64,000 nucleotides of DNA from a virus (lineage: Duplodnaviria > Heunggongvirae > Uroviricota > Caudoviricetes). The notes under the pieces are model-generated. The model had not been told where the DNA came from. It did no database searches and was given only the letters and a program-made list of their open reading frames with translations. The DNA lies in the IMG/VR virus record IMGVR_UViG_3300022932_000016, positions 19,906 to 83,905 of that record; one strand, 5' to 3'. Both the position numbers and the translations under genes were made by a program. Positions within the stretch are counted from its first letter, which is position 1, and every line of letters begins with the position of its first letter. This document shows positions 9,696 through 56,648 of the stretch, one piece after another.

Positions 9696-9842
9696 GTTTC
9701 TATTCCTTTTTTGTTTTAAGGGACGTTTTTTGTGTAAAACTTTTGTTTGTTTCTTTTACGAAGACCATTCGCAGTGTCTGTGCATGACCTCTATACGTTC
9801 TTCTAGTTGTATTATACATATTATTGTTTTATGATAGTTTCA

Positions 9843-10301
9843 ATGACTACCGAAGACCTCGAGCAGACAATTATTAAAGGCATTTTTACGCTGGGCAATC
9901 ACATCTTGATTTCACCAGAGTGTTTACACATGCGAAAAGAGTTAGTTGACGACAACCGTATCATGCTTTGTCGCAACGTCATACTGTATATCGACAAGAA
10001 CGGTATCACCGAGAACTTCCCACAAGCTCGCTACGAGATGAGACCACTAGCTTTTGCAACACTTATGACACCAGTATGCGACATCACCATAAGTCAAGGT
10101 GAAGTGTACTCTATAAGTTACAAGCATGTTCACGAAGTCGGGGTGTTCCCACAGAGTATCGACATCGAAGAGGTGCTAACAGAGGTAGATCGCGTCGCTT
10201 TCACGTTTGACGCAGAGTTTAACACCGCTCGAGTGCTGCGATTGTCGCGACACAAGCTAGACCCACGGTTTAACCAGCCAAAACGCTCTCTTATTGAATA
10301 A
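9843..10301 (+). CDS. hypothetical protein
   Basis: ORF on the strand opposite the flanking structural genes. Start chosen at the internal ATG (MTTEDLEQ). Confidence 0.45.
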   Translation: MTTEDLEQTIIKGIFTLGNHILISPECLHMRKELVDDNRIMLCRNVILYIDKNGITENFPQARYEMRPLAFATLMTPVCDITISQGEVYSISYKHVHEVGVFPQSIDIEEVLTEVDRVAFTFDAEFNTARVLRLSRHKLDPRFNQPKRSLIE

Positions 10302-10327
10302 AACCTATTGCGTTTTCTGTATATACG

Positions 10328-10516
10328 TTGTACGATATGTATATGTATACCGAAGAAGACTACGCAACAGTTGAAGCTATGACCATCTTTGGTGGTTCGT
10401 TCGTTGTCGCACTCGCCCATGCGTGTCGACAAGCTGACGCGGTTAACCTAGCGAAAATTAAAGCAACGTGGCCAGAATACTGGGCTGAGTATTCAGAAAT
10501 GAGCAAGAACTTATGA
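10328..10516 (+). CDS. hypothetical small protein
   Basis: ORF only. Confidence 0.3.
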   Translation: MYDMYMYTEEDYATVEAMTIFGGSFVVALAHACRQADAVNLAKIKATWPEYWAEYSEMSKNL

Positions 10517-10663
10517 GCAAGACACACCAAGAGAAACTAGAAAAGCTACACTGGTGGCGTAATTACTGGTTGATGATGATATTTATTATGCTGACAGCTA
10601 TAAACTTCACTCTCGCGCTGAACCTGAGCGCGATTACTGCGGCACTGAGGTATTTATAATGAA
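10514..10663 (+). CDS. small membrane protein (single TM, 49 aa)
   Basis: Read directly from sequence: MSKTHQEKLEKLHWWRNYWLMMIFIMLTAINFTLALNLSAITAALRYL. Start overlaps the upstream stop and its end overlaps the next ATG. Confidence 0.3.
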
Positions 10664-13326: not shown

Positions 13327-13601
13327 GCGTTGTATTTACCTAATTGTTTATTCTAACTTGATTATACATAGTAATGAAATACCAGAGAGTCAAGGGGTAG
13401 CTAATAAGAAACACCGCTCGTGAAAGCGGTGGTCTATAAGGGGGTATAAGATGATGTGTGCGCCCATGATGCCCAATGCACATATCGGTCGGAGGGTATT
13501 TGTGCTACTAATCAAGTCAACACAATGGTATATTATAGTATCGCCTACCCCCGAAGTCAACGACCCTAGACAACACCAGGACCTGATGATACAGTAGGGT
13601 T

Positions 13602-13868
13602 ATGAGCTATGAAAACTATGTAAAAGACGACGACGAGTTCTACCTCACCGTAGGTGATCTCCGCTCCGCCATGAGAGATTTGCCCGATAACGCAAAGGTC
13701 TACTACCAACGTATCGAAGACGTGTACTTCGAAAAACACGGGTGGAAGCCAGACCTCCTAGTCCCAGACGACTTTATGCCAGATGAACGTGAACTCGACA
13801 ACCAATATGTTCGAGCGTTCGCAGGTTTCAAGTATGACGGTCGACTATGCTTGACAGCACACTACTAG
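13602..13868 (+). CDS. hypothetical protein
   Basis: ORF; first gene of the plus-strand block, divergent from the portal. Confidence 0.4.
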   Translation: MSYENYVKDDDEFYLTVGDLRSAMRDLPDNAKVYYQRIEDVYFEKHGWKPDLLVPDDFMPDERELDNQYVRAFAGFKYDGRLCLTAHY

Positions 13869-14040
13869 AGCGATAAAATAGTAACGTGCGCTAGTCACAG
13901 TGTCATAGACACCTCCAACTTGCGTTAATCGTATAAAGCAAAGGCCACCCTCTTACTTTCCAGTTCAGGGGTGGTTTTTGTTTGTCCTAGAGTTGACAAA
14001 AGGTATTGTATTTTTACTAAAAGTGCAATATACTTATTCT

Positions 14041-14292
14041 ATGAGCAAACCAGTGAAACAATACAACGCGGTCACGATGAAGAACGGTGTCACACGACAG
14101 GTTCCAACGCAGTACCACAAACCAAGCGGTAAGAAGAAGACCGTCTCTATGACGCTACCTATTACACTTACCGAGGTGGTAGAAAATCTCGCGAACATCG
14201 ACTTTAACGATAACAAGAGTAACGCGTACGAAACGCTATTATTAGAAGCTCTAGAAAGCAGGGGTCTACATGTACAGTCGAACGATAACTAA
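14041..14292 (+). CDS. hypothetical protein
   Basis: ORF. Start uncertain (13978 or 14041). Confidence 0.35.
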   Translation: MSKPVKQYNAVTMKNGVTRQVPTQYHKPSGKKKTVSMTLPITLTEVVENLANIDFNDNKSNAYETLLLEALESRGLHVQSNDN

Positions 14293-14734
14293 ATCAGCAG
14301 AGTACCGAGCGTTGCTTCCGACGCTCCTACGGGTAGAACACACCCTCAAAGGTAATCAGATAGCACGTGATATTAGTATCTTCAAAGACTTCACAAGCGG
14401 TCTCTACACGTACGAGTCACTCGGTCTACGCTATAACAACCTACGCGGTTCACGTATATCTCAGATCGTTAGGTCAATCGAGCACCAAATAAAGAACCCG
14501 AATGCACCGAACCCTATAATGACCGACCAGACAATGTGGCGACGCAACCGTAAAATCTACGAGCTTTATTGCACTGGTGAATATAGTTTCGCTGACCTAG
14601 GTAAAAAGTTCAATCTCGGTGACGCTCGCGTCAGTCAAATCATCAAAGATGTCACACACAACGAAGAACTCCGACGCTCCCGAGAGGCGTTTAATGAACC
14701 ACTTATAAGCGATATGGTCAACCACCGTGCGTAA
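14270..14734 (+). CDS. sigma-70 region-4-like HTH protein (two tandem HTH-like segments)
   Basis: SLGLRYNNLRGSRISQIVRSIEHQI and FADLGKKFNLGDARVSQIIKDV resemble sigma region 4 and ArpU/RinA-type HTH. Confidence 0.55.
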   Translation: MYSRTITKSAEYRALLPTLLRVEHTLKGNQIARDISIFKDFTSGLYTYESLGLRYNNLRGSRISQIVRSIEHQIKNPNAPNPIMTDQTMWRRNRKIYELYCTGEYSFADLGKKFNLGDARVSQIIKDVTHNEELRRSREAFNEPLISDMVNHRA

Positions 14735-15000
14735 CCTCCGATGTTTTTTCGGTATGCACGACTGGAGACCTATCGAAGAACCCCACGTCGAGTTCGTCAC
14801 TAAGTGGGTCGTATACGAAGTAACGCTTGCTGTATGCTCTCGTTGCGCAGACCTCGCAGAGGTAAGAAAGGACTATAACTGATGAGTCAAAAGCTATATA
14901 ACATACTGATAATCTGGGCATTCGCGTTAGTGACCGCTATCGTTATCACGTTCATCTATACTATGCTGAACCCGAAACAGCTTATACTGGGGTGCTAAAA

Positions 15001-15333
15001 ATGGTGCGCGACCCTCTCTTCGGTGACCAAGTTCACATTGCTGACCTATCTCCCGCTCGACGCGATAGCGTCCAACGCTGCCGAGACGTCCAAGAGTTAG
15101 TCGCACTCGCAGAAGAGCGCAACCTATACCGACACTATGCGTCAACCGAGCGCAACCTCATCATGTTTCACGCATATTGTACAGGTAAGATGACCTACGA
15201 GCAGATGTCCCATGTGTCCAAACTCGGTATATCAACCATCAGCAGTATTATGTCGCGTATCATATACCAGACGCTGGCCCATGAAGGCGACATCGTTATG
15301 AACAACGCTAAAGAAAGGAGCATACTCGTATGA
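15001..15333 (+). CDS. sigma-70 region-4-like HTH protein (paralog 2)
   Basis: TYEQMSHVSKLGISTISSIMSRIIYQ. ATG with GGGGTG RBS. The track start at 14992 is GTG. Confidence 0.5.
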   Translation: MVRDPLFGDQVHIADLSPARRDSVQRCRDVQELVALAEERNLYRHYASTERNLIMFHAYCTGKMTYEQMSHVSKLGISTISSIMSRIIYQTLAHEGDIVMNNAKERSILV

Positions 15334-15788
15334 GTAATCCCAATTACGAGCGCACCCTCGCTAGGGTTGAGCAAAATAGGCTCAACATCGTGACCAACAA
15401 GGTTCGCAAGTTGTACCGAGAGGACCTGTATGGTATGAACGTACGAGAGCTGTCTGTTTATTACCTGTCGACCCTTAAAGCTCACGAGAGTGAGCTTATC
15501 CGACGCGCCCCAGAACACCACAACATGTCACGCTCTATCGCCATGGTGCGTCAATATGCTTCTGGTCTCACATACGAACAGGTGGGCAAACTACACGAAC
15601 GGTCTCCCCAAAGGGTACGTCAGGTCGTAACAAAAATGATTTCGCGCTTGAGAAAGCTACACGAACAAGACCTATTGAAGCAAAGTAAGGTAATCGCTAC
15701 CATCGTCAACAATATCGCAACCGTTGAAGCAAACGGGTACGACTACGATGACCTCATGCTCAAGTTCTCACAGGTGAAGCGTATATGA
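15330..15788 (+). CDS. sigma-70 region-4-like HTH protein (paralog 3)
   Basis: LTYEQVGKLHERSPQRVRQVVTKMISRLRKL is a strong sigma r4-type helix-turn-helix. Confidence 0.6.
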   Translation: MSNPNYERTLARVEQNRLNIVTNKVRKLYREDLYGMNVRELSVYYLSTLKAHESELIRRAPEHHNMSRSIAMVRQYASGLTYEQVGKLHERSPQRVRQVVTKMISRLRKLHEQDLLKQSKVIATIVNNIATVEANGYDYDDLMLKFSQVKRI

Positions 15789-16177
15789 GTTTCGCGTCCA
15801 ACCGATCTCCGATACGCCTATCTGGTGTGTCGCGGGGTAAAATCGTCATAGGTGGGGGTGCTAAGCGTGGTGGTTTCACGATGTACGGTGGTCGTCGTCG
15901 CAAGCGTAACAAGATCATGCTCCCTTCGCTGTACGAAAACTACAAAGTCGTTCAGACCTCCGATACTCCTAGTTCCAAAAAAAATCCCAACTCGGCAGTG
16001 ACGAGAGCAGACCGTATCGGTGGGTTGATACTGTTCATCGTATTCTCTTTTCTGATACTCACACTCGCGATAGGGTGGATCATAGTACTCATTGTCTTCG
16101 CAGCACCGTTGATTGTCGTGCTTGGGTTCTTAGGCTTATTCGCGCTACCCTTTTTCGCGCTCACTCATCGAAAATAG
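15785..16177 (+). CDS. membrane protein (basic N-terminus, 2-3 C-terminal TM helices)
   Basis: Hydrophobic stretch LILFIVFSFLILTLAIGWIIVLIVFAAPLIVVLGFLGLFALPFFAL. Confidence 0.45.
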   Translation: MSFASNRSPIRLSGVSRGKIVIGGGAKRGGFTMYGGRRRKRNKIMLPSLYENYKVVQTSDTPSSKKNPNSAVTRADRIGGLILFIVFSFLILTLAIGWIIVLIVFAAPLIVVLGFLGLFALPFFALTHRK

Positions 16178-16265: not shown

Positions 16266-16592
16266 TTATTTGCTTACTGGGATAAAGTAGTAAACGCTTT
16301 TCTTGCTATTGGTTAGCTCAAGAATGTTTTTTACCTTGTGCGCTAGTAATTCTTTACCGTATACAATCTGCATAGTGGTTGTAACTACCTTGTCGCCCTC
16401 GGTGTAACGTATCACGTGTTGGCGGTTTACCTTTTTACCTGTTTCGTCTCGGACGCTTGATGCTTTACCCTCTACACTCTTTACAATTTGCTTGCGGTAA
16501 TCGCTTGCAACTTGTAGCTTGTGCTTAGGCACTGTAACTTTTGCTTTAGTTGTTTTAGTTTTAGCGGTTGTAGTAGCTTTAGTGCTTACCAT
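16266..16592 (-). CDS. small basic protein, paralog A
   Basis: 108 aa, Lys/Thr-rich N-terminus. About 60% identical to 17081-17377 (shared ...VPKHKLQVA... and GKKVNRQHVI...GDKVVT...GKELLAH... segments). Confidence 0.5.
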   Translation of the reverse strand: MVSTKATTTAKTKTTKAKVTVPKHKLQVASDYRKQIVKSVEGKASSVRDETGKKVNRQHVIRYTEGDKVVTTTMQIVYGKELLAHKVKNILELTNSKKSVYYFIPVSK

Positions 16593-16794
16593 AATTGTTT
16601 ACCTCGTGCGCTTATAATTATAATTGTAGTAGTCGCGCCCTGTCTACTGTTAATAGTATACTACACTATGCAATAAAAGTCAATACCTTTTATCAATAAT
16701 CTTTTATGGATTTATGGCGATGGTAACTCCGTCCTCAGTACCATGGAACTCTTGGCGTCGCCAACTGAAGCCGTACCCCAGGCACAGGCCAATG

Positions 16795-16829
16795 TTTCAC
16801 GTGAAATGGTTTTTTGTTTTCACGTGAAA
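16795..16829. repeat. two copies of perfect 12-bp palindrome TTTCACGTGAAA
   Basis: Copies at 16795-16806 and 16818-16829, 23 bp centre to centre. Operator-like. Confidence 0.6.
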
Positions 16830-17080: not shown

Positions 17081-17377
17081 CTACGCTGTAGGTACGAAGT
17101 AGTAGACCGAGCCCTTACGATTAGTAAGTTCGAGAATGTCCTTGCTTGTGTGTGCAAGTAGTTCTTTCCCGTAGATAATCTGTAGGGTAGCTGTAACGAC
17201 TTTGTCGCCCTCAAGATAAGTAATGACGTGTTGTCGGTTTACTTTCTTGCCTGCTTCATCACGAACGCTGGTAGCCTTACCAGTAACGCTCTTGATAATG
17301 TTCTTGCGAAAAGTTTTAGCCACTTCCAACTTGTGGGCTGGTACTGTAACTTTAACTGGTGCTTTGGTTGCTGTCAT
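17081..17377 (-). CDS. small basic protein, paralog B
   Basis: 98 aa, homologous to 16266-16592. AAGGAGA RBS. Confidence 0.5.
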   Translation of the reverse strand: MTATKAPVKVTVPAHKLEVAKTFRKNIIKSVTGKATSVRDEAGKKVNRQHVITYLEGDKVVTATLQIIYGKELLAHTSKDILELTNRKGSVYYFVPTA

Positions 17378-18304: not shown

Positions 18305-18742
18305 CTAGTATTGAAACTGACCGAAACGTGAGATGAGTTCGCCTCGTGCTAGTTCAAGCACCCTTGCGATGTCCCTGTCGTTCAGTGCCGCTCGGTTGCT
18401 TGGTAAACCTAGCTGTGCCGTATCGTTCAGTTTGACACGACTGAAACTGTTTAGAAGCCTACCGTACTTTGCATAGTTCATGCGATTGTACACTATCACT
18501 TCCTCTATATCGAAGAACTTGGTGTAAATGGTTATGCCAGTTCTTTTTTCTACTTTTTGAATGTAGATGTTCTTTGCCTGCTCTGTGTCGATGTGCGGTC
18601 CCGCTTTGACTAGCTGAATGACCTTGCGACCGTTGACTTTGATGCCGTGGTAAATACCAACCCGACTGTCCTTACCGTACTTTTCACTCGGTATAAAGCT
18701 CATTGCCGTGTCGGTAATTTGCTTTAGATTGTGCTGTTGCAT
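18305..18742 (-). CDS. hypothetical protein with C-terminal HTH-like segment
   Basis: 145-aa ORF. Its 5'UTR (ATAATCATAATCATCATAAGGGAAG) resembles that of gene 17081-17377. TATAAT at 18772-18777 (rc). Confidence 0.45.
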   Translation of the reverse strand: MQQHNLKQITDTAMSFIPSEKYGKDSRVGIYHGIKVNGRKVIQLVKAGPHIDTEQAKNIYIQKVEKRTGITIYTKFFDIEEVIVYNRMNYAKYGRLLNSFSRVKLNDTAQLGLPSNRAALNDRDIARVLELARGELISRFGQFQY

Positions 18743-19159
18743 AGTGATACTTCCCTTATGATGATTATGATTATAGCGTTTGTATCTGTTGCTATTAAGT
18801 ATAGTATAACACAGGCTGGGGTATTTTGCAATAGGTTTTATGTAGATTAGGACTGCGTGGCTTCAGTTGGATTCAACGGCAGCAGCGGGGGTTTGAGCCG
18901 TGATAAGATACGTTAAAGCCTGGTCTTTACATCAGGCGTGAAATGGGTTGTAATAGTTGCATCCTTCGTGTATAATTATGTCTAGCGAGTAGCTCTATAG
19001 TAGCAACGTAGGTTGAGCTAGTAGAGCAGTCGCGGCAGTTGAGTACTCCCTTTATAGGGGGTTCTTTTAATTGTAAGGGCAAGAACAGATTATAGCCGAG
19101 GTTTTCGAGCCTGTCTCCAGCACAACGATATAGCGGTGTGGGGCGGTCGAATGCGCCTT

Positions 19160-19185: not shown

Positions 19186-19226
19186 CCCAAATCATAATAA
19201 TTATCATTCTAAGAAAGGAAGCGATA

Positions 19227-19451
19227 ATGGCAAACACACAACACGATAACGTGGGTGAGGTTCTAGTCCTTAAAGACTTTACAACACCTGACGTTGCCTT
19301 TTCACTAAACGCAACCGTTGCCAGCGATGGCTCGATTGTACTGTATGACTACAAGCGTACGGGCTCAAATCACGATAGCAAAATCATTGTTATCAACGAG
19401 GACGAGTTCGACCAGTTAGCTTCATACCTAGGCTATATCAAAGAGGTATAA
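19227..19451 (+). CDS. hypothetical protein
   Basis: AAGGAAG RBS. First gene of the plus-strand block. Confidence 0.5.
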   Translation: MANTQHDNVGEVLVLKDFTTPDVAFSLNATVASDGSIVLYDYKRTGSNHDSKIIVINEDEFDQLASYLGYIKEV

Positions 19452-19453
19452 CC

Positions 19454-19816
19454 ATGGCAGAGTTCAAACCAACTAAGTTCGAGCCTATGAAAGGGTTGCA
19501 CAAAGTTGAAAAAGTGGACTACCGACGTTGGGCAATCGACCGTAACTTACGGGTTCTAGGGCGTGGCGAGTACAAACTCGCAGACATCGTAGATAACATA
19601 AGGGATTACACACGAGATTGGCAAAACGAAGCAAGGCAAGCGATGACTTACCCAATTAAAATGGATAAGCATATCAGCGTTTACTTGCTAGACAACGGTG
19701 TTCACTCCTTCGTATTGTTAGTAAACGATATGCAAGGCAGCTCATACAACCGCAACAGGTTCGAGAGTACACAAGAACAGGAAATCACACTGTTCATAGT
19801 ATCGGAGGTATCATAA
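19454..19816 (+). CDS. hypothetical protein
   Basis: ORF, tightly packed with its neighbours. Confidence 0.5.
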   Translation: MAEFKPTKFEPMKGLHKVEKVDYRRWAIDRNLRVLGRGEYKLADIVDNIRDYTRDWQNEARQAMTYPIKMDKHISVYLLDNGVHSFVLLVNDMQGSSYNRNRFESTQEQEITLFIVSEVS

Positions 19817-20298
19817 TGGCTAATAATCGAACACGGTTAGAGCAAATGGTGTCCGAGATCATGGCAAAAGGTGACGTTCGCCCCGTATTAAATAACCGCA
19901 ACTATTCAAATGTATTCGCTGATGGCAAGTATATTTACTCGTATGGGCCTCATTTTATTATGGGTGCGTATATAGGTAATACATGGCTGGTCAATAGCGA
20001 CCGTTACTCAACGAGTACGGGACGACAGCTGAGTTATTTGCGGGACGCTTTACGAAAGAACGGTATACCTGATAGCCGAATTATCTTCGCACCAATGGAA
20101 GGTAAGCAAAGCACAGTCGGGGACCTCTTGAGGCACGCAGTACGAGCTTGCGACGGAGAGATTGCCAATTATACCAAGCAACTCGAAAAGACACGAAACG
20201 GAAGCGGCAACAATCTTCGTATTAAAGGTTTAATCACCGATTACGAGGAATCGTTAAAGCGTCTGGTCGTATTAAAGGAGATGCAAGTAAATGGCTAA
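19816..20298 (+). CDS. hypothetical protein
   Basis: ORF, coupled. Confidence 0.5.
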   Translation: MANNRTRLEQMVSEIMAKGDVRPVLNNRNYSNVFADGKYIYSYGPHFIMGAYIGNTWLVNSDRYSTSTGRQLSYLRDALRKNGIPDSRIIFAPMEGKQSTVGDLLRHAVRACDGEIANYTKQLEKTRNGSGNNLRIKGLITDYEESLKRLVVLKEMQVNG

Positions 20299-20980
20299 TC
20301 AATCTAGTGCAGACGTAACAATTACAGCTCAGGCAAGTATTGCTAAAGAGCTGTTCGACTATATCAAGGCAGTTCAAGGTGATAGTGAATATAACATTAT
20401 CAGCGAAGAGGCTTTCGATGACGTAGAAATACCAACTGACCCAGAGGCTGAGGTAATAATCAGCGGTTGGGCAACTGGTAGGTGGTCGTATGGTAACGGT
20501 AATCTTCCTGGGTATTTTGCAGGTCGTCTTAATGATGACACGTGGCGATACGAGAAAGAGTCCCACATCGGCTACGGTAAGCTAGTTTCAGCAATCAAGC
20601 GCAAAAATGGCTGGTTCGAGCTAGAATACAAAGACCAAGAAGGCGGTTCGCAGTTTATTGACGTTGGCTCTATGAGAATAGACAAGGACAACGTAGATGA
20701 CAACGAGCCGAGCGTTTCATCAGACACTATGGACTATACCGTAGCTAATATGATGGACGTTTTCGGGTATAGCGAGTATGAAGCCCTTGACATAATGCAC
20801 GGGGACGAAATCGCAGATGCCTGGTCAGAATACTCAGACTTAGGAGGGGCAATACAAGATGCCGAGTCCTTCTATGATGAGCATAGTGAAGATATTTACG
20901 AAGGCAACTTTGACGTAGCCGAGGTGCTACTCGAAGAACAACGTAAAGCGAAAGAGGGTGAGGCGACAAAAACGCCTTAG
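20291..20980 (+). CDS. highly acidic protein (D/E-rich)
   Basis: 229 aa with a strongly acidic C-terminal half (DEHSEDIYEGNFDVAEVLLEEQ...). Confidence 0.5.
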   Translation: MANQSSADVTITAQASIAKELFDYIKAVQGDSEYNIISEEAFDDVEIPTDPEAEVIISGWATGRWSYGNGNLPGYFAGRLNDDTWRYEKESHIGYGKLVSAIKRKNGWFELEYKDQEGGSQFIDVGSMRIDKDNVDDNEPSVSSDTMDYTVANMMDVFGYSEYEALDIMHGDEIADAWSEYSDLGGAIQDAESFYDEHSEDIYEGNFDVAEVLLEEQRKAKEGEATKTP

Positions 20981-21039
20981 CCCATCAACATTTAGTTCAA
21001 TTTATTTTATTTATATCTCTTTGAAAGGAGAACAACACA

Positions 21040-21306
21040 GTGAACAATTATTCAAACGGACAAAAAGTAATCGTAATCGCACCAGAGGGCTACATCTTCG
21101 CAGGTATTCTTGCCGATGCAATGCTTCCTGGTCACCTTCGCCTAGAAAACTACAAGCAAATTGTTGGTTGGGATAGCGATAAGGGCGTTGGTGCAGTTGC
21201 AAATGGTACAATCGAAGCCCAACTTACAGAGGGTAGCGAATGGATTGAGCTCCCTGAGTTCAGTTACCGAGTCGTGATTGACGCCACCAAAATGAAAGGT
21301 CTGTAA
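21040..21306 (+). CDS. hypothetical protein
   Basis: ORF. Confidence 0.4.
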   Translation: MNNYSNGQKVIVIAPEGYIFAGILADAMLPGHLRLENYKQIVGWDSDKGVGAVANGTIEAQLTEGSEWIELPEFSYRVVIDATKMKGL

Positions 21307-21533
21307 TGCAGTACAAAGAGGAAATGACCTATATGCTTCCTCGGGTACGACTTGATGGACCAGTTAAGGCACCAGTCGACCAAGGACGCTTTCAACGACC
21401 AACTTATACTAAATCAGGCAAATCTCCGTTCTCATCAAGTATTAACGATACGTTCGTAAGAAAAGGTATCATGGAAATGCGAGTTCGGCTCAATTTTGCA
21501 ACCGCTAATGACTTCAAAGGAGTTAAATCGTAA
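21306..21533 (+). CDS. hypothetical protein
   Basis: ORF, coupled. Confidence 0.35.
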   Translation: MQYKEEMTYMLPRVRLDGPVKAPVDQGRFQRPTYTKSGKSPFSSSINDTFVRKGIMEMRVRLNFATANDFKGVKS

Positions 21534-22426
21534 TGGGTAGCAACAAATCACTAATCGAAAAGATGCTGGACCGTATCAAAGAGCAACCTCGTATTGCCTT
21601 AGCAATCGAAGGTCAAGCAGGTATGGGCAAATCAGCAATCGTTGAGAGCTGGGCTGCAGAGAACAATGTTCCTGTAGTTAAGCTACTCGCAAGTACACTA
21701 AGCGAGGAAGACATCGCAGGTGTAATCGTAGCCGACCATGAAAAGCACACAGGTGAATACTACAGCCTTGGTCTTCTTGACCGTGTAGTGAAAGAGCCTA
21801 CTGTATTGTTCCTAGATGAGCTTAATACCTCGGTCAAGGAAACAGCAGATGCTTTGCTGACACTTATTGAAAGTCGCCACCTCCCTGACGGTACTAAGCT
21901 ACACCCTGACACAATCATCGTGGCAGCTATGAACCCTGCAATCGCCTATGGTAACTATGAGTTATCACCTGCCATGCGTAACCGCTTTGCGTGGGTACGT
22001 TGGTCACAGGACGCGAAAGAATGGTGGACTAATTTCGGTGTCGAAGTGCCTGAAGAGGACGACGTTCGTGTTATGGTTGATAAACTAATCAACGAGGACG
22101 GTCTTGACTTTACAGACGACAAAGGCTTCACAGAAGAAACGAATACGTTTACCACTCCTCGATCTTTGACTAGGCTCTTGCAGTTTGCAGGTAGTGTAGC
22201 CGAAGTGAAGATGTTTGCACCGAGCTTTATCGGTAAGGACGCAGTAGCGTTGATTGACGCCTACAAAGAAGTTGACGTTGATATTCGCGGCAATAGTTTC
22301 TTTACTCGTGAAAAGGAAGAACCAACGTCTAAGACGACTGGTGTTAAGGGCGCAACTGGTACAGGTGGTGTTCAGACAACCAGCCTTCACGCTCGATTAG
22401 CTAAACGTATCGAAGAACGGGAATAA
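21533..22426 (+). CDS. MoxR-like AAA+ ATPase
   Basis: Walker A (EGQAGMGKS), Walker B (LFLDELN) and a sensor region (AAMNP...AMRNRF). Confidence 0.85.
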   Translation: MGSNKSLIEKMLDRIKEQPRIALAIEGQAGMGKSAIVESWAAENNVPVVKLLASTLSEEDIAGVIVADHEKHTGEYYSLGLLDRVVKEPTVLFLDELNTSVKETADALLTLIESRHLPDGTKLHPDTIIVAAMNPAIAYGNYELSPAMRNRFAWVRWSQDAKEWWTNFGVEVPEEDDVRVMVDKLINEDGLDFTDDKGFTEETNTFTTPRSLTRLLQFAGSVAEVKMFAPSFIGKDAVALIDAYKEVDVDIRGNSFFTREKEEPTSKTTGVKGATGTGGVQTTSLHARLAKRIEERE

Positions 22427-22427
22427 T

Positions 22428-23633
22428 ATGAAAATCTATGACGACCAGGACAAGCTAGACGCTCTCGTGAAATCCTTGAAGCGTCATGGCTATACTTCAT
22501 ACGGTGTTGCCCTACAGCAACTCGGTACTCGATGGACAGATGAAAAAGGTGTAATCGGCTTCACGAACCCACAAGGTATCGTGATTAACGGCACCCTTAA
22601 TATCAACGAGCAATCTTTGGTAGCCCGTCACGAAGTATTGCACACGCTTCTACGGCACCTCGATGACACAATCTGGGGTGACGGACGTGACGACCACGAA
22701 GTTCGTAATATGGCAGGCGACCTTGAGTTGTCCCACTACTACGATGATGTAGACAGCCGACACTTTAATATCGGTGGTCCTCTTGCAGGTGGTTTGAACG
22801 TACAACGTCGAGCCCACGGCAAGTACTTCGGTATGGACTGTGTCGAGATTTACGATGACCTAATCAAGAACGGCAAAGCTAAAGGCAAGCCGCTTGGTGA
22901 TTGTATTCAAGGCGATGGGCCAAAGGGTAAAAGTAGTGGGGCGAGCGCAGGCGACCTCGATGACAAGGGTAAGAAGGAAACATCTGTTTCGCCTAGTCCC
23001 CAGCCAGCGAAGATGTCTGACGAATTGAAGAAGGAACTCTTGAACAAGATTAAGGTAGAGCGACAGGAACGCTACGAGCAATCAACCATTGAACGTGGTC
23101 TGCGTGCGGAAGTAGATATTGACCCAGAGGTCGAGTTGTTCTACTCCCTTAACCGTTATTTCATCAAAGAGCAACAGCTTAGCCGAAACAAGAGTTATGC
23201 ACGACCGAACAAGAAATATCAAGGCGCAATCGTCAAGAAGGGCCGACGTAAGACTCGCAGCCCAGGTAAGACGTTAGTGGTGTATATCGACCGTTCGGGA
23301 AGTATGAGCGACGAAAAGACTGGTAAAGCGGAAGCAATTCTTGCAAACACAGTCAAAAGGCTCAACCACGTTACCGTTGTAACTAAATACTTTAGCGATG
23401 AAGTATCAATGGACGGTAATATCGGTGGTGGTACAAATTATTCTGCCGTTATTGACGACATAATGATTAACAAGTACCGAGATGTGGCAATCGTAACCGA
23501 CAACGACAACGATGGACGTGCGAATATCGCAGACGTTGATGCCGTGTGGATCGTATCGGTTGAACCAGGATACCCAACGAGAATTGCTCAACGCTTTAAT
23601 GCGACAATGCTTGTGGAAACGGAGATTAGGTAA
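22428..23633 (+). CDS. VWA-domain protein with N-terminal HExxH putative metallopeptidase domain (DUF2201-like)
   Basis: ARHEVLHTLLRH HExxH motif. C-terminal MIDAS (VVYIDRSGSMSD...GGTNY). Adjacent to MoxR, a known pairing. Confidence 0.75.
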   Translation: MKIYDDQDKLDALVKSLKRHGYTSYGVALQQLGTRWTDEKGVIGFTNPQGIVINGTLNINEQSLVARHEVLHTLLRHLDDTIWGDGRDDHEVRNMAGDLELSHYYDDVDSRHFNIGGPLAGGLNVQRRAHGKYFGMDCVEIYDDLIKNGKAKGKPLGDCIQGDGPKGKSSGASAGDLDDKGKKETSVSPSPQPAKMSDELKKELLNKIKVERQERYEQSTIERGLRAEVDIDPEVELFYSLNRYFIKEQQLSRNKSYARPNKKYQGAIVKKGRRKTRSPGKTLVVYIDRSGSMSDEKTGKAEAILANTVKRLNHVTVVTKYFSDEVSMDGNIGGGTNYSAVIDDIMINKYRDVAIVTDNDNDGRANIADVDAVWIVSVEPGYPTRIAQRFNATMLVETEIR

Positions 23634-23869
23634 TGCGAATACTCGATAAGAAATGGAAACACGACCTGTTTCAAATCGGTGCTTTTGTTTTAGTGGCGTC
23701 GATGTTGAATAAGGCTGCTGACGGTGATATGGTCTTGTACCTATTGTCGCTTGCCTACCTTATCGGGTTCGGTGTATCAAACTTTCACGAGGGCGAGATG
23801 CGAGCTGATGTTCGCAACGCCCTTCGTAAGAAGATTGCAGAAAAAGAGGCTCAAGATGACAAAAGCTAA
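23633..23869 (+). CDS. small membrane protein (2 TM)
   Basis: Hydrophobic segments IGAFVLVASML and LLSLAYLIGFGV. Confidence 0.4.
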   Translation: MRILDKKWKHDLFQIGAFVLVASMLNKAADGDMVLYLLSLAYLIGFGVSNFHEGEMRADVRNALRKKIAEKEAQDDKS

Positions 23870-24152
23870 GACAAATCTGCCTGATTACAGCAATTATACG
23901 GCACCTAAAATCAAAGACGGTGTACCGATTACTCGGGAGCACTATACGTTCGATGAACGTGTGATGTTGATGATGAAGGACCGTTACCCAGACCGTAGCG
24001 ATGCCCTTATCCGATCTTCGGTGAGCATACTGTATTCGCTAAGTGGGTGGCAACCGTCAGACGGTGAACCAAGCGAGTACACGGAAAACTATATAACCAA
24101 CTTACTCATAATGAGCATAGTAGAAGAGGAGCGACAAAATGGCGATATTTGA
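23856..24152 (+). CDS. hypothetical protein
   Basis: Internal ATG with AAAGAGG RBS. The track ORF extends upstream to 23724. Confidence 0.4.
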   Translation: MTKAKTNLPDYSNYTAPKIKDGVPITREHYTFDERVMLMMKDRYPDRSDALIRSSVSILYSLSGWQPSDGEPSEYTENYITNLLIMSIVEEERQNGDI

Positions 24153-24423
24153 AAGAACACCTAGAGATATAGGCTATCTTACCGTTACCTATGACGAGCT
24201 AATGTCATACAGCAGGATACCAGAACTGGTTTGCGATAATTGCAACAACCTGTTGAAACACGATGAGCTTGCCGTAGTGATACCAGTATTGAACTCAGCC
24301 TATTGCCCTATCTGTACACCTGATTATTTTGAGAGTGTAAAAGACTACCCAGAAGACAGGCCGATCAGAGCAAGGCGCGAGCAGTTCTGGTGCGACTTCT
24401 ATGGTATAGAAAGGACAATATGA
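24139..24423 (+). CDS. small Cys-rich (zinc-ribbon-like) protein
   Basis: CDNCNN...CPICTP. Confidence 0.4.
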   Translation: MAIFERTPRDIGYLTVTYDELMSYSRIPELVCDNCNNLLKHDELAVVIPVLNSAYCPICTPDYFESVKDYPEDRPIRARREQFWCDFYGIERTI

Positions 24424-24614
24424 TAACCAAGAACCCAAAAACTTATAGTGATATAAAAACTGGCAAGATGGTGTTGGCGAAACTCGATGTGCTAATTATG
24501 CCTAACGGTGAAATGTTATGCGCGGGAGAACACATCACGTGGCTTCCTGTTTCTTCGAATATAGTGGAGCAGTTAAGCGACTTCAAAGACGCGATTACGG
24601 GAGAACCTGTATGA
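24420..24614 (+). CDS. hypothetical small protein
   Basis: ORF, coupled. Confidence 0.3.
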   Translation: MITKNPKTYSDIKTGKMVLAKLDVLIMPNGEMLCAGEHITWLPVSSNIVEQLSDFKDAITGEPV

Positions 24615-24748
24615 GTTTCTACGAAGATTATGTAGCCGATGGTTTGTGTTGCATGGTTTGCGGCACGCTCATCGACGGTGAAGAGCCTGGTTACCCACGA
24701 GAGTGTGGTTGTGAACTTAACGAGGAGGAAGGAGATGACGATGAATAA
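24611..24748 (+). CDS. small Cys-rich acidic protein
   Basis: CCMVCG...CGCELNEEEGDDDE. Confidence 0.3.
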   Translation: MSFYEDYVADGLCCMVCGTLIDGEEPGYPRECGCELNEEEGDDDE

Positions 24749-24947
24749 CGAAGATGATAATTATATCTATGTTGATATTCCTGGGACCAATATGACGGTT
24801 CAGGTGAAATGTGAATATGAAGGAATTGTAGTTGACGTTTTCGAGGTAGCCTCTGACGACAGCGTTGAGCCTATAGCCTCTACCTACAAGTTCTACAGTG
24901 AGCTTGGTGTAGAGTTGAAACAGACCTCGAGTGAGGCGACCGAATGA
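24735..24947 (+). CDS. hypothetical small protein
   Basis: GAGGAGGAAGGAG RBS. Confidence 0.35.
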   Translation: MTMNNEDDNYIYVDIPGTNMTVQVKCEYEGIVVDVFEVASDDSVEPIASTYKFYSELGVELKQTSSEATE

Positions 24948-25165
24948 CATTTGTTTGGCCTTGCCGCGCTCCGAAACAAAGGACGCAGCGTGTGATTATC
25001 CACCGCAGAAAAGGTCGTGGGCGTGTAAAGAGTAAGTACGACAAGATGTTCGGCACAAAGGGTAAGTGGGCTGTGCTGTGCGGTCAATGGGTTACGGGCG
25101 ATGTGAACGTAACTACCGATGATAGAAAAGTAACGTGTATGAAATGTTTAAGGAGAATGCGATGA
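24944..25165 (+). CDS. small Cys-containing protein
   Basis: ORF, coupled. C-x2-C at the C-terminus. Confidence 0.35.
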   Translation: MTFVWPCRAPKQRTQRVIIHRRKGRGRVKSKYDKMFGTKGKWAVLCGQWVTGDVNVTTDDRKVTCMKCLRRMR

Positions 25166-25329
25166 GCGTGAGTTTACGAGAAGTCCTTGAAGGGGCTGAA
25201 TACGATTTGAACACCTACAATGACGCTATCTGGCTTTTGTCGAAGCGAAGTGAGTTTGAGGACTTAATCGAAGAGGCAGAAGAAACAGTTGAGCGTATTG
25301 GTGAAGAACGAGAGCGGGATTTCGAATGA
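25162..25329 (+). CDS. hypothetical small acidic protein
   Basis: ORF. Confidence 0.3.
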   Translation: MSVSLREVLEGAEYDLNTYNDAIWLLSKRSEFEDLIEEAEETVERIGEERERDFE

Positions 25330-25511
25330 TCGACAGGATAACCTACCGAATTACAGACGAAACACCAGCCCACATACGTTTTAGCCTTTGGGTTAACGGT
25401 GGTTTGATTTGCACACCTGGCGGCTTATGTTTGCGGGTTGACGAGTTTGAACCTTTTATGGCTAAACTTGGCGCGGTTTCTGACTCTGAGTGGTATAACA
25501 GTTTAGATTAG
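25326..25511 (+). CDS. hypothetical small protein
   Basis: ORF. Confidence 0.3.
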   Translation: MIDRITYRITDETPAHIRFSLWVNGGLICTPGGLCLRVDEFEPFMAKLGAVSDSEWYNSLD

Positions 25512-25556
25512 ATAAAAGCTATTGTATTTTATCTTGAAACGTGTTACTATTAGAGT

Positions 25557-25784
25557 ATGAAACAGATTAAAGTCAATTATATTGCGACAGGTGAATGGGC
25601 CAGTTATGGCACACCTTTTTGGTTAGAGTGTCAGCACTCTGATTACGAAGAGGACGGTCAGCGATTATATTGCGACCACTGTGACAAAATGGGCTACCGA
25701 TATGAAGAACAAGAGTACGAGGGTACAGACGACAATGGCAACATTGAGTTCAGCACCCATACCGTAATTGAATGGTTTGAATAA
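25557..25784 (+). CDS. small Cys/His-containing acidic protein
   Basis: CQHSDYEEDGQRLYCDHCDKMGY. Confidence 0.4.
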   Translation: MKQIKVNYIATGEWASYGTPFWLECQHSDYEEDGQRLYCDHCDKMGYRYEEQEYEGTDDNGNIEFSTHTVIEWFE

Positions 25785-25801
25785 CCAGAAAGGAGCAAGT
25801 T

Positions 25802-26527
25802 ATGCGTGTACGAAACGAAGTAAACAATATATTCGATGAAATGATGATACCTAGGATTACAAGTACAGTCGAGAAGAACCGATTGAAAATTGGTTACACA
25901 GAGATTGGACAGGAAGTCGACCTTGGCTTAAAGCAAGCGTCGCACACCCTTATCAGCGGTATTAGTCGCTCGGGCAAGACCCAAATGGCGTTACACCTGT
26001 TAGACAGCTTAACGAAGTATTCTATGGTGGTGGTTTATTCGATGAAACCAGGAGACTTCTTTATGTATCGGGACAAGGTCAGACTTGTTGAAGATAAATA
26101 TGAAATGTTCAGCTTATTGCGTATGACGGTGGGCGAGATTGAAAAACGAGCGAACCGTATTCGTGAGCAGAGCGAGAAGGCTGGTCACGTCGTTGAATGT
26201 ACCGACCGACCGATGATTGTTATGATTGATGAATATGCGTCACTTTCAAAGGACATGGACGATGCAACCGAAAACGCTATCGAAAAGATTGCGGCAGTTG
26301 GTGCAGGTCTAAACGTCTACTTGTATATTATTACCCAAGTACCAAAGAAATCAGTTATGCTAGGTACGCTAAGGGATAATATGATGACAGACATCGCTTT
26401 CAAACAGCGTTCACCTGAAACAAGCAGAATGGCGATTGGCTCGAATGCGGCAATGATGCTACCACTCGGTCAATGTATCGTGCGAAACGTCGACAGGAAC
26501 TTCAAAGTTACCCACATGACGGAATAG
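25802..26527 (+). CDS. FtsK/SpoIIIE-like P-loop ATPase domain protein
   Basis: Walker A (ISGISRSGKTQ) and Walker B (IVMIDEYASL) arranged as in the FtsK/HerA motor domain. 241 aa. Confidence 0.6.
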   Translation: MRVRNEVNNIFDEMMIPRITSTVEKNRLKIGYTEIGQEVDLGLKQASHTLISGISRSGKTQMALHLLDSLTKYSMVVVYSMKPGDFFMYRDKVRLVEDKYEMFSLLRMTVGEIEKRANRIREQSEKAGHVVECTDRPMIVMIDEYASLSKDMDDATENAIEKIAAVGAGLNVYLYIITQVPKKSVMLGTLRDNMMTDIAFKQRSPETSRMAIGSNAAMMLPLGQCIVRNVDRNFKVTHMTE

Positions 26528-26836: not shown

Positions 26837-26865
26837 TTGACGTACCCCTTGCCAAGCGGTATAAT
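26837..26865 (+). promoter_or_regulatory. sigma-70-type promoter TTGACG-17-TATAAT
   Basis: Near-consensus hexamers with 17-nt spacing. The spacer contains TTGCCAAGCGG. ATG at 26873 is only 8 nt downstream, so the mRNA may be leaderless. Confidence 0.55.
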
Positions 26866-26872
26866 AGTAGTA

Positions 26873-27037
26873 ATGTTTGACTATGCAATACAGCTACCCA
26901 CGATTGACAAGGTACTCGGTTGCCCTTGGGGAAGAGCGGTTTGGCGGCATGGGCACAAAACTGGTCGTTTCGTTCGACACGGCAGGTTGCAATACGTACA
27001 AAGGCATAACAAAAAATACTTGGTGGTAATGGGCTAA
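26873..27037 (+). CDS. small protein (54 aa), paralogous N-terminus with the next ORF
   Basis: MFDYAIQLPTIDKVL versus downstream MIDYIIELPPIDEML. Starts directly after the promoter. Confidence 0.3.
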   Translation: MFDYAIQLPTIDKVLGCPWGRAVWRHGHKTGRFVRHGRLQYVQRHNKKYLVVMG

Positions 27038-27237
27038 TGATTGATTATATAATCGAGCTACCTCCTATAGATGAAATGTTATACCGAGATAAGCGGGTTA
27101 ACCTGGCTATGCAACCAGCTAGACCAGATATAGGAATGTTCAAGTTCTTCAAGCTCGAACGGCACCTATTCAGGCGAAGGCGCACGGGGTGTTACCTCCT
27201 TGTAACAGATAACCCAGAAGTGGCGGCAATAGGCTGA
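27037..27237 (+). CDS. small protein (66 aa)
   Basis: ORF. ATGA overlaps at both ends. Confidence 0.3.
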   Translation: MIDYIIELPPIDEMLYRDKRVNLAMQPARPDIGMFKFFKLERHLFRRRRTGCYLLVTDNPEVAAIG

Positions 27238-27860
27238 TGACCCAAGACGAGATGTACGAGATTATGCAAAAGCATTTGTCTAGCCCTGCCCCCTGGCGGC
27301 AGAAACTTTCTGGTTCTTGGGACGGTTTTCGTAAAGCTAATCACTACACTGGACCCGTGAAGAACGACATCTTTGTTCGACCACCTGTTGAACACGACAA
27401 TAAGTTTGTTTTTGAGATGAAAAAACCCGCAAAAGTTGATCGCGGGAAGAAGAATAACATTGAACACATGATTAAGGGCCGAATGGGGCAGTTGAAACAC
27501 TCGAGAAGTGCCTATACAATCACAACCCTCGATTCTGGAGAAGTCGAGATGGTAGACCACACTGGGGGGTTAATACATTCGTTTGACCTTGCCCGCCACC
27601 AGTCAAGCTCAGTGTCTACACCGTTTCCACCTCGATGGGAGAGTGCTTGGGGACAGGGGGTAGAGGATTTCACTGCTCATCACAGAATGGCGACACCAAG
27701 TTTTGAGATAGAAACGGAAGAGTTGACAACGCTTTCTGGTGAATCCCACACTGTTCTTAGAAGTATATCGCAGAAGAATACATGGGTTAGGGACGAGTGG
27801 GAAAAACCACGCTTCGCACAAGGTGGAATCATCAAGTTAGATGACTACACCGATTGGTAA
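27237..27860 (+). CDS. hypothetical protein
   Basis: 207-aa ORF. Confidence 0.5.
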   Translation: MTQDEMYEIMQKHLSSPAPWRQKLSGSWDGFRKANHYTGPVKNDIFVRPPVEHDNKFVFEMKKPAKVDRGKKNNIEHMIKGRMGQLKHSRSAYTITTLDSGEVEMVDHTGGLIHSFDLARHQSSSVSTPFPPRWESAWGQGVEDFTAHHRMATPSFEIETEELTTLSGESHTVLRSISQKNTWVRDEWEKPRFAQGGIIKLDDYTDW

Positions 27861-27891
27861 CCATCTTCGAACTCAGAACGCAGCCAGCGAG

Positions 27892-27921
27892 CTCCTGTGA
27901 TGTCACAGGGGCTTTATTTAT
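27892..27921 (+). terminator. rho-independent terminator between convergent genes
   Basis: CTCCTGTGA-TG-TCACAGGGG stem followed by GCTTTATTTAT. Confidence 0.65.
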
Positions 27922-42386: not shown

Positions 42387-43781
42387 CTATTTATGTTTGA
42401 ATCGTTCGGTGCCATCTGACTTGAACGACTTGAATTGATTTGTGACACCCGCAGTGATAACCCTACCAGCGTAGAAGGTTCGCAGCAAAAAGCCATAAAT
42501 TGGCATTTCGACTGTGATTTTCTTACCGCTATCGAAGTATCGGGTGTAAATACCCCTACAAATGTCGATAATGTCTTCACGAGAGCCACCGACTACACCG
42601 CAGTTGAGTATGTGTTGGCGGTTTCGCGCGGTGAAAGTGCGATATGGTTCGACGGTTGAGTGCTGTCGCAACCATCTACTTTGTGAAGGCACACCCTGCT
42701 CGATACCAGAATAAATCTTTCCAGGTTGCATATCTCTGAACGGGTTATTGACCACCTCGACATCGGTTGAATCTACGCAGAAAACATTATCAATTTCGGG
42801 GTGCTGTTTCAGGTAGCGGTAAATGCTAAGCCACCGCTGAAAGTACGGGTTTAATACGCTTTCAACTTTTATGTGGGTGACCTGCTCGGTATCGGGTTCG
42901 TCGAAGCAATCGTGCAGAAGCACTAGCTTTTCGCCCTGCAATGAATCAATGAGCGGCTTCATCGCGCTATAGTCTGCTGACCAGTTCACCTTGCGTTGAG
43001 GGTCTTCGTGCGAAGTAAAGTAAGAAGCGATAATTACGTTATTCATTCCTGCACTATCAGACTTCTTAACCTCTCGGTAATCAATGTACTCGCTGGATTT
43101 TAGCGATTCGCGGTATAATTTCGCGTTGTTCGCGAGACCAGTTCGACGTGCGTGCTGTTCGATTGAACTTGAAACCTCTTGGTATTCGTCCATGCTGTAA
43201 ATAAGGTTCGAACTATCGGGCACGTCCATTGCTCTGAACGTAGTAAGGCCAGCGTTGAAGATGCGATTAGTCCATGCGGTGTGTTCAAACATAGAGATAC
43301 CGAATCGCGGGTCTAAGCCACCCACCTTTTCAAGCACTACCTTGTTAGCATAAATCATGCAACCGCGAGTATGCGAGTAAGCCACGATTGTGCTGTCGCG
43401 ATATATCTCAAGCATATCGGTTAGTTGTTTTGCTGGGTTATTTGCGAACTCCCGAAACTGGTACATAAGGTGGGGCTCTTCGCTATCGACGTACGGTTTC
43501 CACCAGTCTTTCACCTTTGGGTATGTGTCGTCATCGAACAGGAAGAAGTCAGTCGCACCGCGTTCTTCGAGCAATTCGAGACATTTGTTTTTGACCCTTG
43601 CGACACCACCCCGTTCAGGGAAAACGTAATCAGCTTCTTTGGGCGCATTTTCATCGTGGTCTGATACAACGACAAGCACGGCACCTTTTGGCAGATACTT
43701 TTTAATTTCTTTGTATGTTTTCTTGAAAACATCTGGTCTTTTGTAGGTTGATATTGCAACCCCGACTACAGGTTCATTCAT
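42387..43781 (-). CDS. glycosyltransferase (GT-A/GT2-like N-terminal domain plus additional C-terminal domain)
   Basis: VVGVAISTYKRPD...FLFDDDTYP (DxD). Confidence 0.65.
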   Translation of the reverse strand: MNEPVVGVAISTYKRPDVFKKTYKEIKKYLPKGAVLVVVSDHDENAPKEADYVFPERGGVARVKNKCLELLEERGATDFFLFDDDTYPKVKDWWKPYVDSEEPHLMYQFREFANNPAKQLTDMLEIYRDSTIVAYSHTRGCMIYANKVVLEKVGGLDPRFGISMFEHTAWTNRIFNAGLTTFRAMDVPDSSNLIYSMDEYQEVSSSIEQHARRTGLANNAKLYRESLKSSEYIDYREVKKSDSAGMNNVIIASYFTSHEDPQRKVNWSADYSAMKPLIDSLQGEKLVLLHDCFDEPDTEQVTHIKVESVLNPYFQRWLSIYRYLKQHPEIDNVFCVDSTDVEVVNNPFRDMQPGKIYSGIEQGVPSQSRWLRQHSTVEPYRTFTARNRQHILNCGVVGGSREDIIDICRGIYTRYFDSGKKITVEMPIYGFLLRTFYAGRVITAGVTNQFKSFKSDGTERFKHK

Positions 43782-45061: not shown

Positions 45062-45107
45062 CTGCTGTTAATTATACAGGAATACCGATTGTTTTACCAT
45101 AGAGCCA

Positions 45108-47249: not shown

Positions 47250-47278
47250 TTGACTTTGCCAAGGGCAAGCAGTATCGT
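47250..47278 (+). promoter_or_regulatory. promoter TTGACT-17-TATCGT with an inverted repeat TTGCC-N3-GGCAA in the spacer
   Basis: Seen directly. ATG at 47288 is 9 nt after the -10 element, so the mRNA may be leaderless. Shares TTGCCAAG and AGTAG-CAAT elements with the promoter at 26837. Confidence 0.45.
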
Positions 47279-47287
47279 AGTAGCAAT

Positions 47288-56645: not shown

Positions 56646-56648
56646 CAA

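Follow-up and report, generated by a model that had tools for sequence, protein, structure and literature searches.

Several operon-leading mRNAs of an uncultivated phage probably have little or no leader, with promoters that nearly abut the ATG start codons, as our data on a 64,000-nucleotide (nt) stretch of its DNA indicate. This stretch, referred to as the window in the following, covers positions 19,906 to 83,905 of the IMG/VR record IMGVR_UViG_3300022932_000016, and its source is a siphovirus-like phage of about 84-86 kb. A sequence-only reading of positions 16612-16640 had proposed a recurrent promoter-like element, TAT(A/C)RTAGTAG, placed shortly before ATG codons and implying leaderless mRNAs for at least three transcription units. 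The proposed element does not stand as a single motif, as detailed below. The leaderless starts fared better: several promoter-like elements do end a few nt before an ATG, and we found this arrangement at seven heads, with 5' ends that are predicted only.

We tabulated every transcription-unit head in the window and sought the best promoter within 250 nt upstream. As sigma70-type promoters we took pairs of hexamers resembling TTGACA (-35) and TATAAT (-10) with 16-18 bp between them, the two being scored together out of 12. At seven heads, namely 13602+, 26873+, 45061-, 45108+, 47288+, 55175- and 55218+, the best promoter ends 6-10 nt before the ATG (individual gaps are given in Table 1; the gap at 47288 is 9 nt). 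No Shine-Dalgarno (SD) sequence is found at any of these seven heads, against 12 of the 13 leadered heads (Fisher p=1.0e-4), and the start codon is ATG at all seven. The other heads have their promoters 24-205 nt upstream, together with an AGGAG-type SD in most cases. Of 80 annotated ATG starts, 4 have a promoter scoring at least 9/12 whose end lies 4-10 nt ahead of the ATG; among other ATGs the count is 12 of 1615 (p=0.005). A TANNNT sequence ~10-12 bp before the start codon is an accepted computational signature of leaderless genes (PMC3160421), and such a TA-led arrangement is present at the seven heads along with the missing SD and the ATG. The open reading frames (ORFs) at these heads appear to be genuine, because their substitutions relative to related phages fall mainly on the third codon position (e.g. 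6/3/44, 5/5/39 and 3/3/15) and the ATGs of those compared are all conserved.

The promoters as a class are real. We counted 51 sigma70-type promoters in 10-30 kb of the window, where 29 +/- 5 are expected, and five of the six matches scoring 11/12 are intergenic when intergenic DNA makes up 10.6% of the window (binomial p=7e-5). The promoters at 26837-65, 47262>47235 and 13560>13532 each score 11/12, and the one at 47250-78 scores 9/12. Comparison with relatives shows that at several promoters the hexamers are conserved while the spacer drifts.

The clearest footprint of this kind is at 26873, where a 54-aa Cys/His-rich protein is the first product of the 26873-27860 unit, which is closed by a terminator at 27889-27914. 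In the three sequences compared, none of the 15 positions of the hexamers and the ATG varies, whereas only 10 of the 24 in spacer and discriminator stay the same (p=1.4e-4). We also considered an in-frame TTG at 26801 as the start of this gene, and it is excluded by upstream indels of 5 and 29 nt. The gene starting at ATG 13602 encodes 88 aa, lacks an SD and leads the 13602-16177 operon. In the relatives L015 and L016 this ATG, the -10 box and the 6 nt between them are conserved, with a -35 box again at 17 nt despite a 3-nt indel.

The heads at 55175 and 55218 form a bidirectional pair whose layout is preserved in a distant phage. In L031, whose homolog of the 55175 product has 80% protein identity, the flanks are unalignable and the divergent partner is a different gene, and the 42-bp layout is identical: CAT, 9 nt, A(G/C)TATAACA, 8 nt, TA(C/T)AAT, 10 nt, ATG. 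Between 55176-55217 and L031, 19 of the 21 element positions are identical, against 9 of 27 elsewhere (p=8e-5). Homologs of the 55175 product with 71-84% identity are 135 aa long, and the 55-aa ORF from ATG 55218 is conserved in relatives. The sequence-only reading had rightly placed the latter ATG 9 nt past TGTTATACT, which is an extended -10. Further homologs of the 138-aa gene have TATAAT-10-ATG (L032) or ccTGTATAAT-6-ATG (L034, L035 and L118, 60-64% identity), and in L034 and L035 a terminator hairpin lies directly upstream of the TATAAT. Copies of the gene inside operons have an SD-like sequence (L033 and L036) or overlap the preceding gene (L037). The IMG/VR set for this family (80 loci) was left out, as it consists mostly of C-terminal domains of longer ParB-like proteins for which start-finding is invalid. 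An alternative start of the minus-strand ORF at 55229 (54759-55229) was rejected, as the extension changes non-synonymously in relatives and the homologs fit 55175. We noted that one homolog of the 55175 product, P0022 (156 aa), has been called 18 residues too long from an upstream ATG, and that two apparent ORFs beside the L031 head (965-1500) are missing from the automatic gene calls.

The second pair, at 45061 and 45108, has 46 bp between its ATGs. The TATAAT, the 9-nt gap and the ATG of 45061 are kept in L008 and L011, and the HNH segment 45085-45504 is absent from both, with ~29 nt in its place. It has the look of a homing-endonuclease insertion, adjoining the 45061 promoter on one side and running into the convergent gene 45496-45894 on the other. 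Leaderless-type heads of distantly related phages have the string ccTGTATAAT in common, which is found at 45071-45079 (-) of the window and, in L034, L035 and L118, just upstream of position 1501; its TG directly abuts the hexamer, one position nearer than in the classical TGnTATAAT extended -10.

The head at 47288 lies in a 540-bp segment which, by comparison with related phages, is a recent insertion. The alignment skips from window position 47243 to 47784 in L007, L008, L009 and L011, and the segment is present in the two near-identical contigs L012 and L013. It holds TTGACT-17-TATCGT (47250-78) and, after 9 nt, the ATG 47288 of a 161-aa gene, which lacks an SD and is not followed by a terminator. 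The N-termini of homologs align with ATG 47288, no in-frame ATG, GTG or TTG is found upstream within the open frame, and only 62 nt are available between this ATG and the 5' end of a transfer-messenger RNA (tmRNA) gene on the other strand. A 63%-identical homolog in L001 has TATAAT, 7 nt and ATG, again without SD. More distant homologs, in L003, L006 and metagenome-assembled genomes (MAGs), are operon-internal or have an ordinary SD and have no bearing on the promoter. The segment indicates that promoter and ATG together form a unit small enough to move along with a gene, as a mobile cassette would.

The neighbouring tmRNA gene is 87-93% conserved in related phages. It was not called by ARAGORN, and it is the only match in a permissive Rfam scan of the whole window. 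In its G-rich acceptor stem the 5' GGGGGCG pairs with the 3' end ...CGCUUCCACCA, which ends in CCA. The encoded tag, ANTFVSKVKNAVAQFVASPVLATAAY, is unusually long with 26 residues and ends in AAY instead of the usual LAA. The -35 box of the tmRNA promoter is supplied by the left end of the insertion, where relatives have TGCACA. An SD-less gene (46368-46820) begins 52 nt after the tmRNA 3' end.

Table 1. Coordinates of the promoters, pairs, RNA elements and insertion in the window.
Feature	Position	Strand	Remark
TAGACA-17-(TGa)TACAGT, 6 nt, ATG 13602	13567-13604	+	leaderless-type head, not cited in the sequence-only reading
TTGACG-17-TATAAT, 7 nt, ATG 26873	26837-26875	+	leaderless-type head, footprint in relatives
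Divergent pair, ATGs 46 bp apart	45059-45110	both	45061- and 45108+
ccTGTATAAT, 9 nt, ATG 45061	45076>45071	-	122-aa gene leading glycosyltransferase operon
TACCAT, 7 nt, ATG 45108	45095-45100	+	HNH endonuclease
Bidirectional pair, ATGs 42 bp apart	55173-55220	both	55175- and 55218+
TACAAT, 10 nt, ATG 55175	55191>55186	-	138 aa, leads operon 138aa-glycosyltransferase-191aa-TerL
TGtTATACT, 9 nt, ATG 55218	55200-08	+	55 aa, leads 55218-63290 operon
Strain-specific insertion, 540 bp	47244-47783	+	replaces ~20 nt of relatives
Phage tmRNA gene	47225>46873	-	Rfam RF00023, 72.9 bits vs threshold 47, model positions 1-374
tmRNA promoter TTGGCA-16-TATAAT	47262>47235	-	-10 ends 9 nt before mature 5' GGGGG
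Promoter TTGACT-17-TATAAT	13560>13532	-	towards portal gene; cited site 13524 is its -10
Palindromic TTATAATTATAA	16612-23	-	readable as -10 of 16646>16617; TATAAT altered in L016
Inverted repeat AGTAG-N11-CTACT, 5-bp arms	16628-32 / 16644-48	-	inside minus-strand leader
TAGACA-18-TATAAT	16646>16617	-	possible second promoter, gene 16266-16592; cited site 16617 is its -10
Main promoter TTGACT-17-TATACT	16683>16655	-	gene 16266-16592; cited "palindromic" site 16652 is its -10
TTGCAA-17-TGtTATACT + TTAATA-17-TATAAT	18831>18803, 18798>18770	-	gene 18305-18742; cited site 18789 lies between
Promoter TTGTAA-17-TATAAT	18948-18976	+	conserved
Transcribed hairpin, about 45 nt	between 18976 and 19045	+	holds the TAGTAGs of cited site 18987
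Intrinsic terminator	19045-19062	+	conserved

Transcription from a sigma70-type promoter is expected to start about 7 nt downstream of the -10 box; the one indirect check in the window is the tmRNA promoter, with 9 nt from its -10 box to the mature 5' end. The gaps of 6-7 nt (13602, 26873 and 45108, and also those in L034, L035 and L118) fit a predicted 5' untranslated region of 0-1 nt. A number of observations weigh against mRNAs that are strictly leaderless. The gaps of 9-10 nt (45061, 47288, 55175 and 55218) predict leaders of 1-4 nt unless the start is unusually distal, and one extra 5' nucleotide already lowers leaderless translation in E. coli, with a drop of ~2-fold per added 5' nucleotide in Caulobacter (PMC8459731). 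All our start positions are predictions from E. coli-type spacing rules; a search of bacterial genomes with one phage gene family gave matches scattered over unrelated MAGs, including Bdellovibrionales, Rickettsiales, Thermotogota, Nitrospiraceae and others, from which no host was inferred. The -35 boxes are weak at 45061-, 45108+, 55175- and 55218+, the close relatives are ~90% identical at 55176-55217 and add little there, and 45108 and 47288 have no orthologous site for comparison. Some operon-internal genes of the phage are also SD-less, so a missing SD alone proves little.

The last observation could be turned into an alternative, in which the -10-like hexamers next to the ATGs are idle and the genes are read from upstream promoters or by read-through, with leadered mRNAs translated without an SD, e.g. 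through an unstructured A/U-rich region and S1. We consider this unlikely, and equally so its corollary that the TA-rich hexamers merely reflect AT-rich initiation regions. Several SD-less operon-internal genes must after all be translated in this phage, and both the four weak -35 boxes and the 9-10 nt gaps, which exceed the modal distance between -10 and start, would be in keeping with upstream transcription. However, such transcription leaves unexplained why TTGACG-17-TATAAT and its exact distance to ATG 26873 are invariant amid varying bases and upstream indels, and why the 42-bp geometry is preserved between unalignable flanks. The terminator directly upstream of TATAAT-6-ATG in L034 and L035 also speaks against it, as does the SD which the 138-aa gene gains where it is operon-internal (L033 and L036). 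No better promoter was found upstream, and in particular no stronger one further upstream of 55175 or 55218.

Two other explanations concern the strings noticed in the sequence-only reading, all of which were found within a few nt of where it had placed them. Its TAT(A/C)RTAGTAG could be a phage-specific promoter consensus, i.e. a -10 box with a conserved downstream extension, maybe read with a phage factor, which would make the eight listed sites one regulatory class. The exact element occurs twice, at 26860 and 47273, against 0.07 expected, and in both copies a TTGAC -35 box stands 17 nt away, the two spacers having the same base at 10 of 17 positions in register. Moreover, TATAATAGTAGC is also found in L016 at the minus-strand promoter equivalent to 18831>18803, and about 5 of 14 supported promoters have AG after their -10 box. 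The consensus, however, was written from the very two sites that match it; the remaining six listed sites do not fit, and five of the eight, including 16612-16640, turn out to be transcribed RNA structure or promoters on the minus strand whose leaders carry an SD. The excess over a shuffled control shrinks when one mismatch is allowed, to eight matches against 3.2 +/- 1.9 expected, a count reached in 2 of 100 shuffles. TAGTAG alone occurs 44 times in the window, mostly within genes. The extension at 26866-72 is not kept, with AGTAGTA in the window, AGTGTAA in L016 and AGGGTAA in L017, and the 47273 copy lies within the recent insertion absent from relatives. The ~50 of ~97 phage proteins that were scanned include no sigma factor and no RNA polymerase. 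We regard the TAGTAG string as incidental, with no real signal, and a phage-specific consensus as very unlikely, since comparison with relatives appears to have largely refuted it already.

The same holds for the shared spacer TTGAC...TTGCCAAG(G)GC, which would be a common operator if one regulator controlled the 26873 and 47288 units. The identical 8-mer is indeed present within both spacers, and TTGCCaagGGCAA at 47256-68 forms an inverted repeat. Its offset from the -35 box is nevertheless unequal (7 nt vs 1 nt), and the 8-mer is not enriched, with three copies in the window against 1.9 expected and 25 of 100 shuffles reaching three. The copy at 26849-56 is replaced by TTGCCATG and GTGCCCTG in relatives, and the plus-strand copy at 47257-62 is the divergent tmRNA promoter's -35 box, TTGGCA, read backwards, 16 nt from the TATAAT preceding the tmRNA 5' end. 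Among ~100 promoter pairs, the chance that some 8-mer is shared is about 0.16 by our estimate. The shared spacer is thus incidental, and we give hardly any credence to a common operator. A minus-strand promoter from TTGGCA at 26855>26850 was also tried and rejected, as the hexamers in the place of its -10 box (GTGGAT/TGGATT) are unacceptable and relatives do not keep the site.

Preferring promoters that nearly abut their ATGs, we infer the actual start sites, the polymerase that reads them and the mode of translation as follows. The host sigma70-type RNA polymerase would transcribe the phage, and units would begin in two ways, with an SD-led leader in most and with a -10 box adjoining the ATG without SD in about a third. 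At the seven heads the predicted first nucleotide is the A of the start codon or lies 1-4 nt ahead of it. An mRNA of this kind would leave no room for a ribosome-binding site and would be translated by the leaderless (5'-AUG, 70S-type) route. We hold this reading to be probable, and comparison with relatives supports it well. At the two back-to-back pairs only 42-46 bp separate the ATGs, which would bring two polymerases into competition for one stretch of DNA.

The remaining cited sites are mostly parts of ordinary leadered units. Those at 16617 and 16652 belong to the minus-strand gene 16266-16592, which has a leader of about 55 nt with GAGG 9 nt before ATG 16592. Both hexamers of its main promoter are kept in L015 and L016 while the spacer varies, and the TAGTAG in 16612-16640 is kept as an inverted-repeat arm within the minus-strand leader and not as a promoter extension. 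A plus-strand promoter at 16613-24 was rejected: its best -35 box, TTTACC, is only 15 nt away and its second TATAAT is lost in L016. Neither a plus-strand ORF nor any usable plus-strand -35 box is found for 16612-16640. The claim that all listed sites are intergenic is correct for protein-coding genes according to our gene map, while the 46821-47287 region contains the tmRNA gene. Between -10 and ATG, where 8-9 nt had been stated, we measured 9 nt for 47288 and 7 nt for 26873.

The gene 16266-16592 has tandem promoters and a Lys/Thr-rich N-terminus. It and the minus-strand gene 17081-17377 cross-match each other's positions in relatives with ~70% DNA identity, and we take the two to be paralogues on this ground. 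Nearby, a perfect palindrome of operator-like look, TTTCACGTGAAA, is present in two copies 23 nt apart at 16795-16829, and the 13-mer GGTCCCCTGCCTG occurs twice, 185 nt apart (16837/17022). Both are within a 488-nt ORF-free region that is conserved in relatives and has no Rfam family match.

The promoter belonging to the cited site 13524 has invariant hexamers and a diverged spacer in relatives. A terminator-like hairpin (13431>13412, -) lies ~100 nt past this promoter and just before the portal gene; promoter and hairpin (13412-13560) could be a small RNA or a late leader under antitermination. The gene 18305-18742 (-), next to the cited site 18789, has a leader with the SD AAGGGAAG. In 18948-19062, which holds the cited site 18987, the TAGTAG words are not kept in relatives and the hairpin arms co-vary. 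RNAalifold finds two compensatory pairs, from only two effectively different sequences, and this promoter-hairpin-terminator arrangement (18948-19072) precedes the long 19227-26527 operon. Three unit leaders (17378-17410-, 18743-18775- and 19190-19226+) share ATCATAAT(C/A)AT(C/T)AT...AAGG just upstream of the SD, which may be a common regulatory or translational element. Elsewhere in the window, 963 nt between divergent units (9696-10658) have no convincing ORF, the candidates being TTG-started and SD-less only.

The window has a GC content of 46% and encodes the tape-measure protein (239-4114-), the portal (11656-13326-) and the large terminase TerL (51901-53307-), along with tail-fibre-like proteins, two glycosyltransferases, a DNA polymerase exonuclease subunit, RusA, ParB-like proteins and several HNH endonucleases. 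The glycosyltransferases are at 42387-43781 (-) and 53897-54811 (-). One matches phrog_1579 with E=4e-124, and the other matches a family annotated as beta-glucosyl-HMC-alpha-glucosyltransferase, with homologs at related loci carrying the Pfam domain TAGT; the two together suggest hypermodified phage DNA. Most proteins at the leaderless-type heads have no assigned function in Pfam and PHROGs, and no integrase was seen among the genes scanned. A nucleotide search of 13-20 kb against a phage collection gave no match in near or distant mode, and the TerL relatives in this collection all have <40% identity. Close relatives of 84-86 kb with 73-90% DNA identity were found in IMG/VR (UViG 3300022751_000001, 3300022924_000017 and others). 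Initial scans of viral contigs with the 161-aa protein, the 241-aa protein and the 466-aa tail protein gave nothing useful.

We speculate, with considerable doubt, that these phages represent a widespread uncultivated lineage of 78-110 kb siphoviruses with TAGT-type DNA glycosyltransferases, which would systematically head their main operons with leaderless or near-leaderless mRNAs. The fixed 42-bp bidirectional unit, with opposite-strand -10 boxes 9-10 nt from divergent ATGs, might then serve as a minimal switch that selects either the packaging operon or the replication/lysis-side operon, possibly coupled to a manipulation of host translation like that of IF2/IF3 by the phage phiYS40. Within this lineage, the tmRNA is found in the window phage and its close relatives.

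Leaderless phage mRNAs are already known, and our findings leave the current understanding of transcription and translation unchanged. What is mildly unusual here is the mixture of SD-led and leaderless-type heads, the 42-bp pair of fixed geometry and the mobile promoter-plus-ATG cassette. If our interpretation is true, a mesophilic-looking phage would use leaderless initiation solely at the head genes of about a third of its operons, and it would provide a natural system for asking why a phage mixes two initiation modes, e.g. for timing, resistance to host shut-off or compactness. There is a practical side as well, since gene callers relying on SD sequences mis-start or miss such genes, as in the cases of P0022 and the L031 ORFs. 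The 540-bp insertion would show that a promoter-plus-ATG unit can move a gene between phages without a leader.

The insertion resembles the morons of lambdoid phages, in which a gene flanked by its own promoter is inserted between conserved genes. Like a moron, the self-contained segment 47244-47783 brings a gene together with the promoter for it, and it is found in one strain but not in close relatives; unlike in morons, the gene has no terminator, leader or SD, and the adjacent tmRNA promoter has its -35 box restored by the left end of the segment. The seven heads share with bacterial TA-led genes (PMC3160421; PMC12340547; Caulobacter, PMC8459731) a TANNNT ~6-12 nt before the ATG, the missing SD, the preference for ATG and the first place in the unit. 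Those genes belong to cellular genomes and are concentrated in Actinobacteria and Deinococcus-Thermus, in the latter of which genes are commonly expressed from a -10 region next to the ORF (PMC12340547), whereas we deal with a 46% GC phage with strong SDs elsewhere.

Among phages, the lambda cI mRNA from PRM is the textbook leaderless mRNA (PMC9031893, citing Shean and Gottesman 1992). As far as that account describes it, it has in common with our heads that a phage gene is transcribed from a sigma70 promoter divergent with a neighbouring promoter and that the transcript begins with the A of AUG, which is a prediction here. Lambda cI is a single gene in a lysogeny switch with defined operators, whereas several operon heads, including that of the packaging operon, are concerned here, and no repressor or operators were identified in the window phage. 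Another parallel is phiYS40, a lytic phage of Thermus thermophilus, most of whose middle and late transcripts are leaderless according to Sevostyanova et al. 2007 as cited in PMC3594737, in a host phylum where this mode is common (PMC12340547). It manipulates IF2/IF3, and no such manipulation is known for the window phage. Both phages would have many units without a leader, read by the host RNA polymerase from -10-dominated promoters abutting the start codon, as described for phiYS40 in PMC3594737 and as predicted for the window phage. Some predicted promoters of the latter have a consensus -35 box, unlike those of phiYS40, and only about a third of its heads are of the leaderless type, side by side with strong AGGAG leaders.

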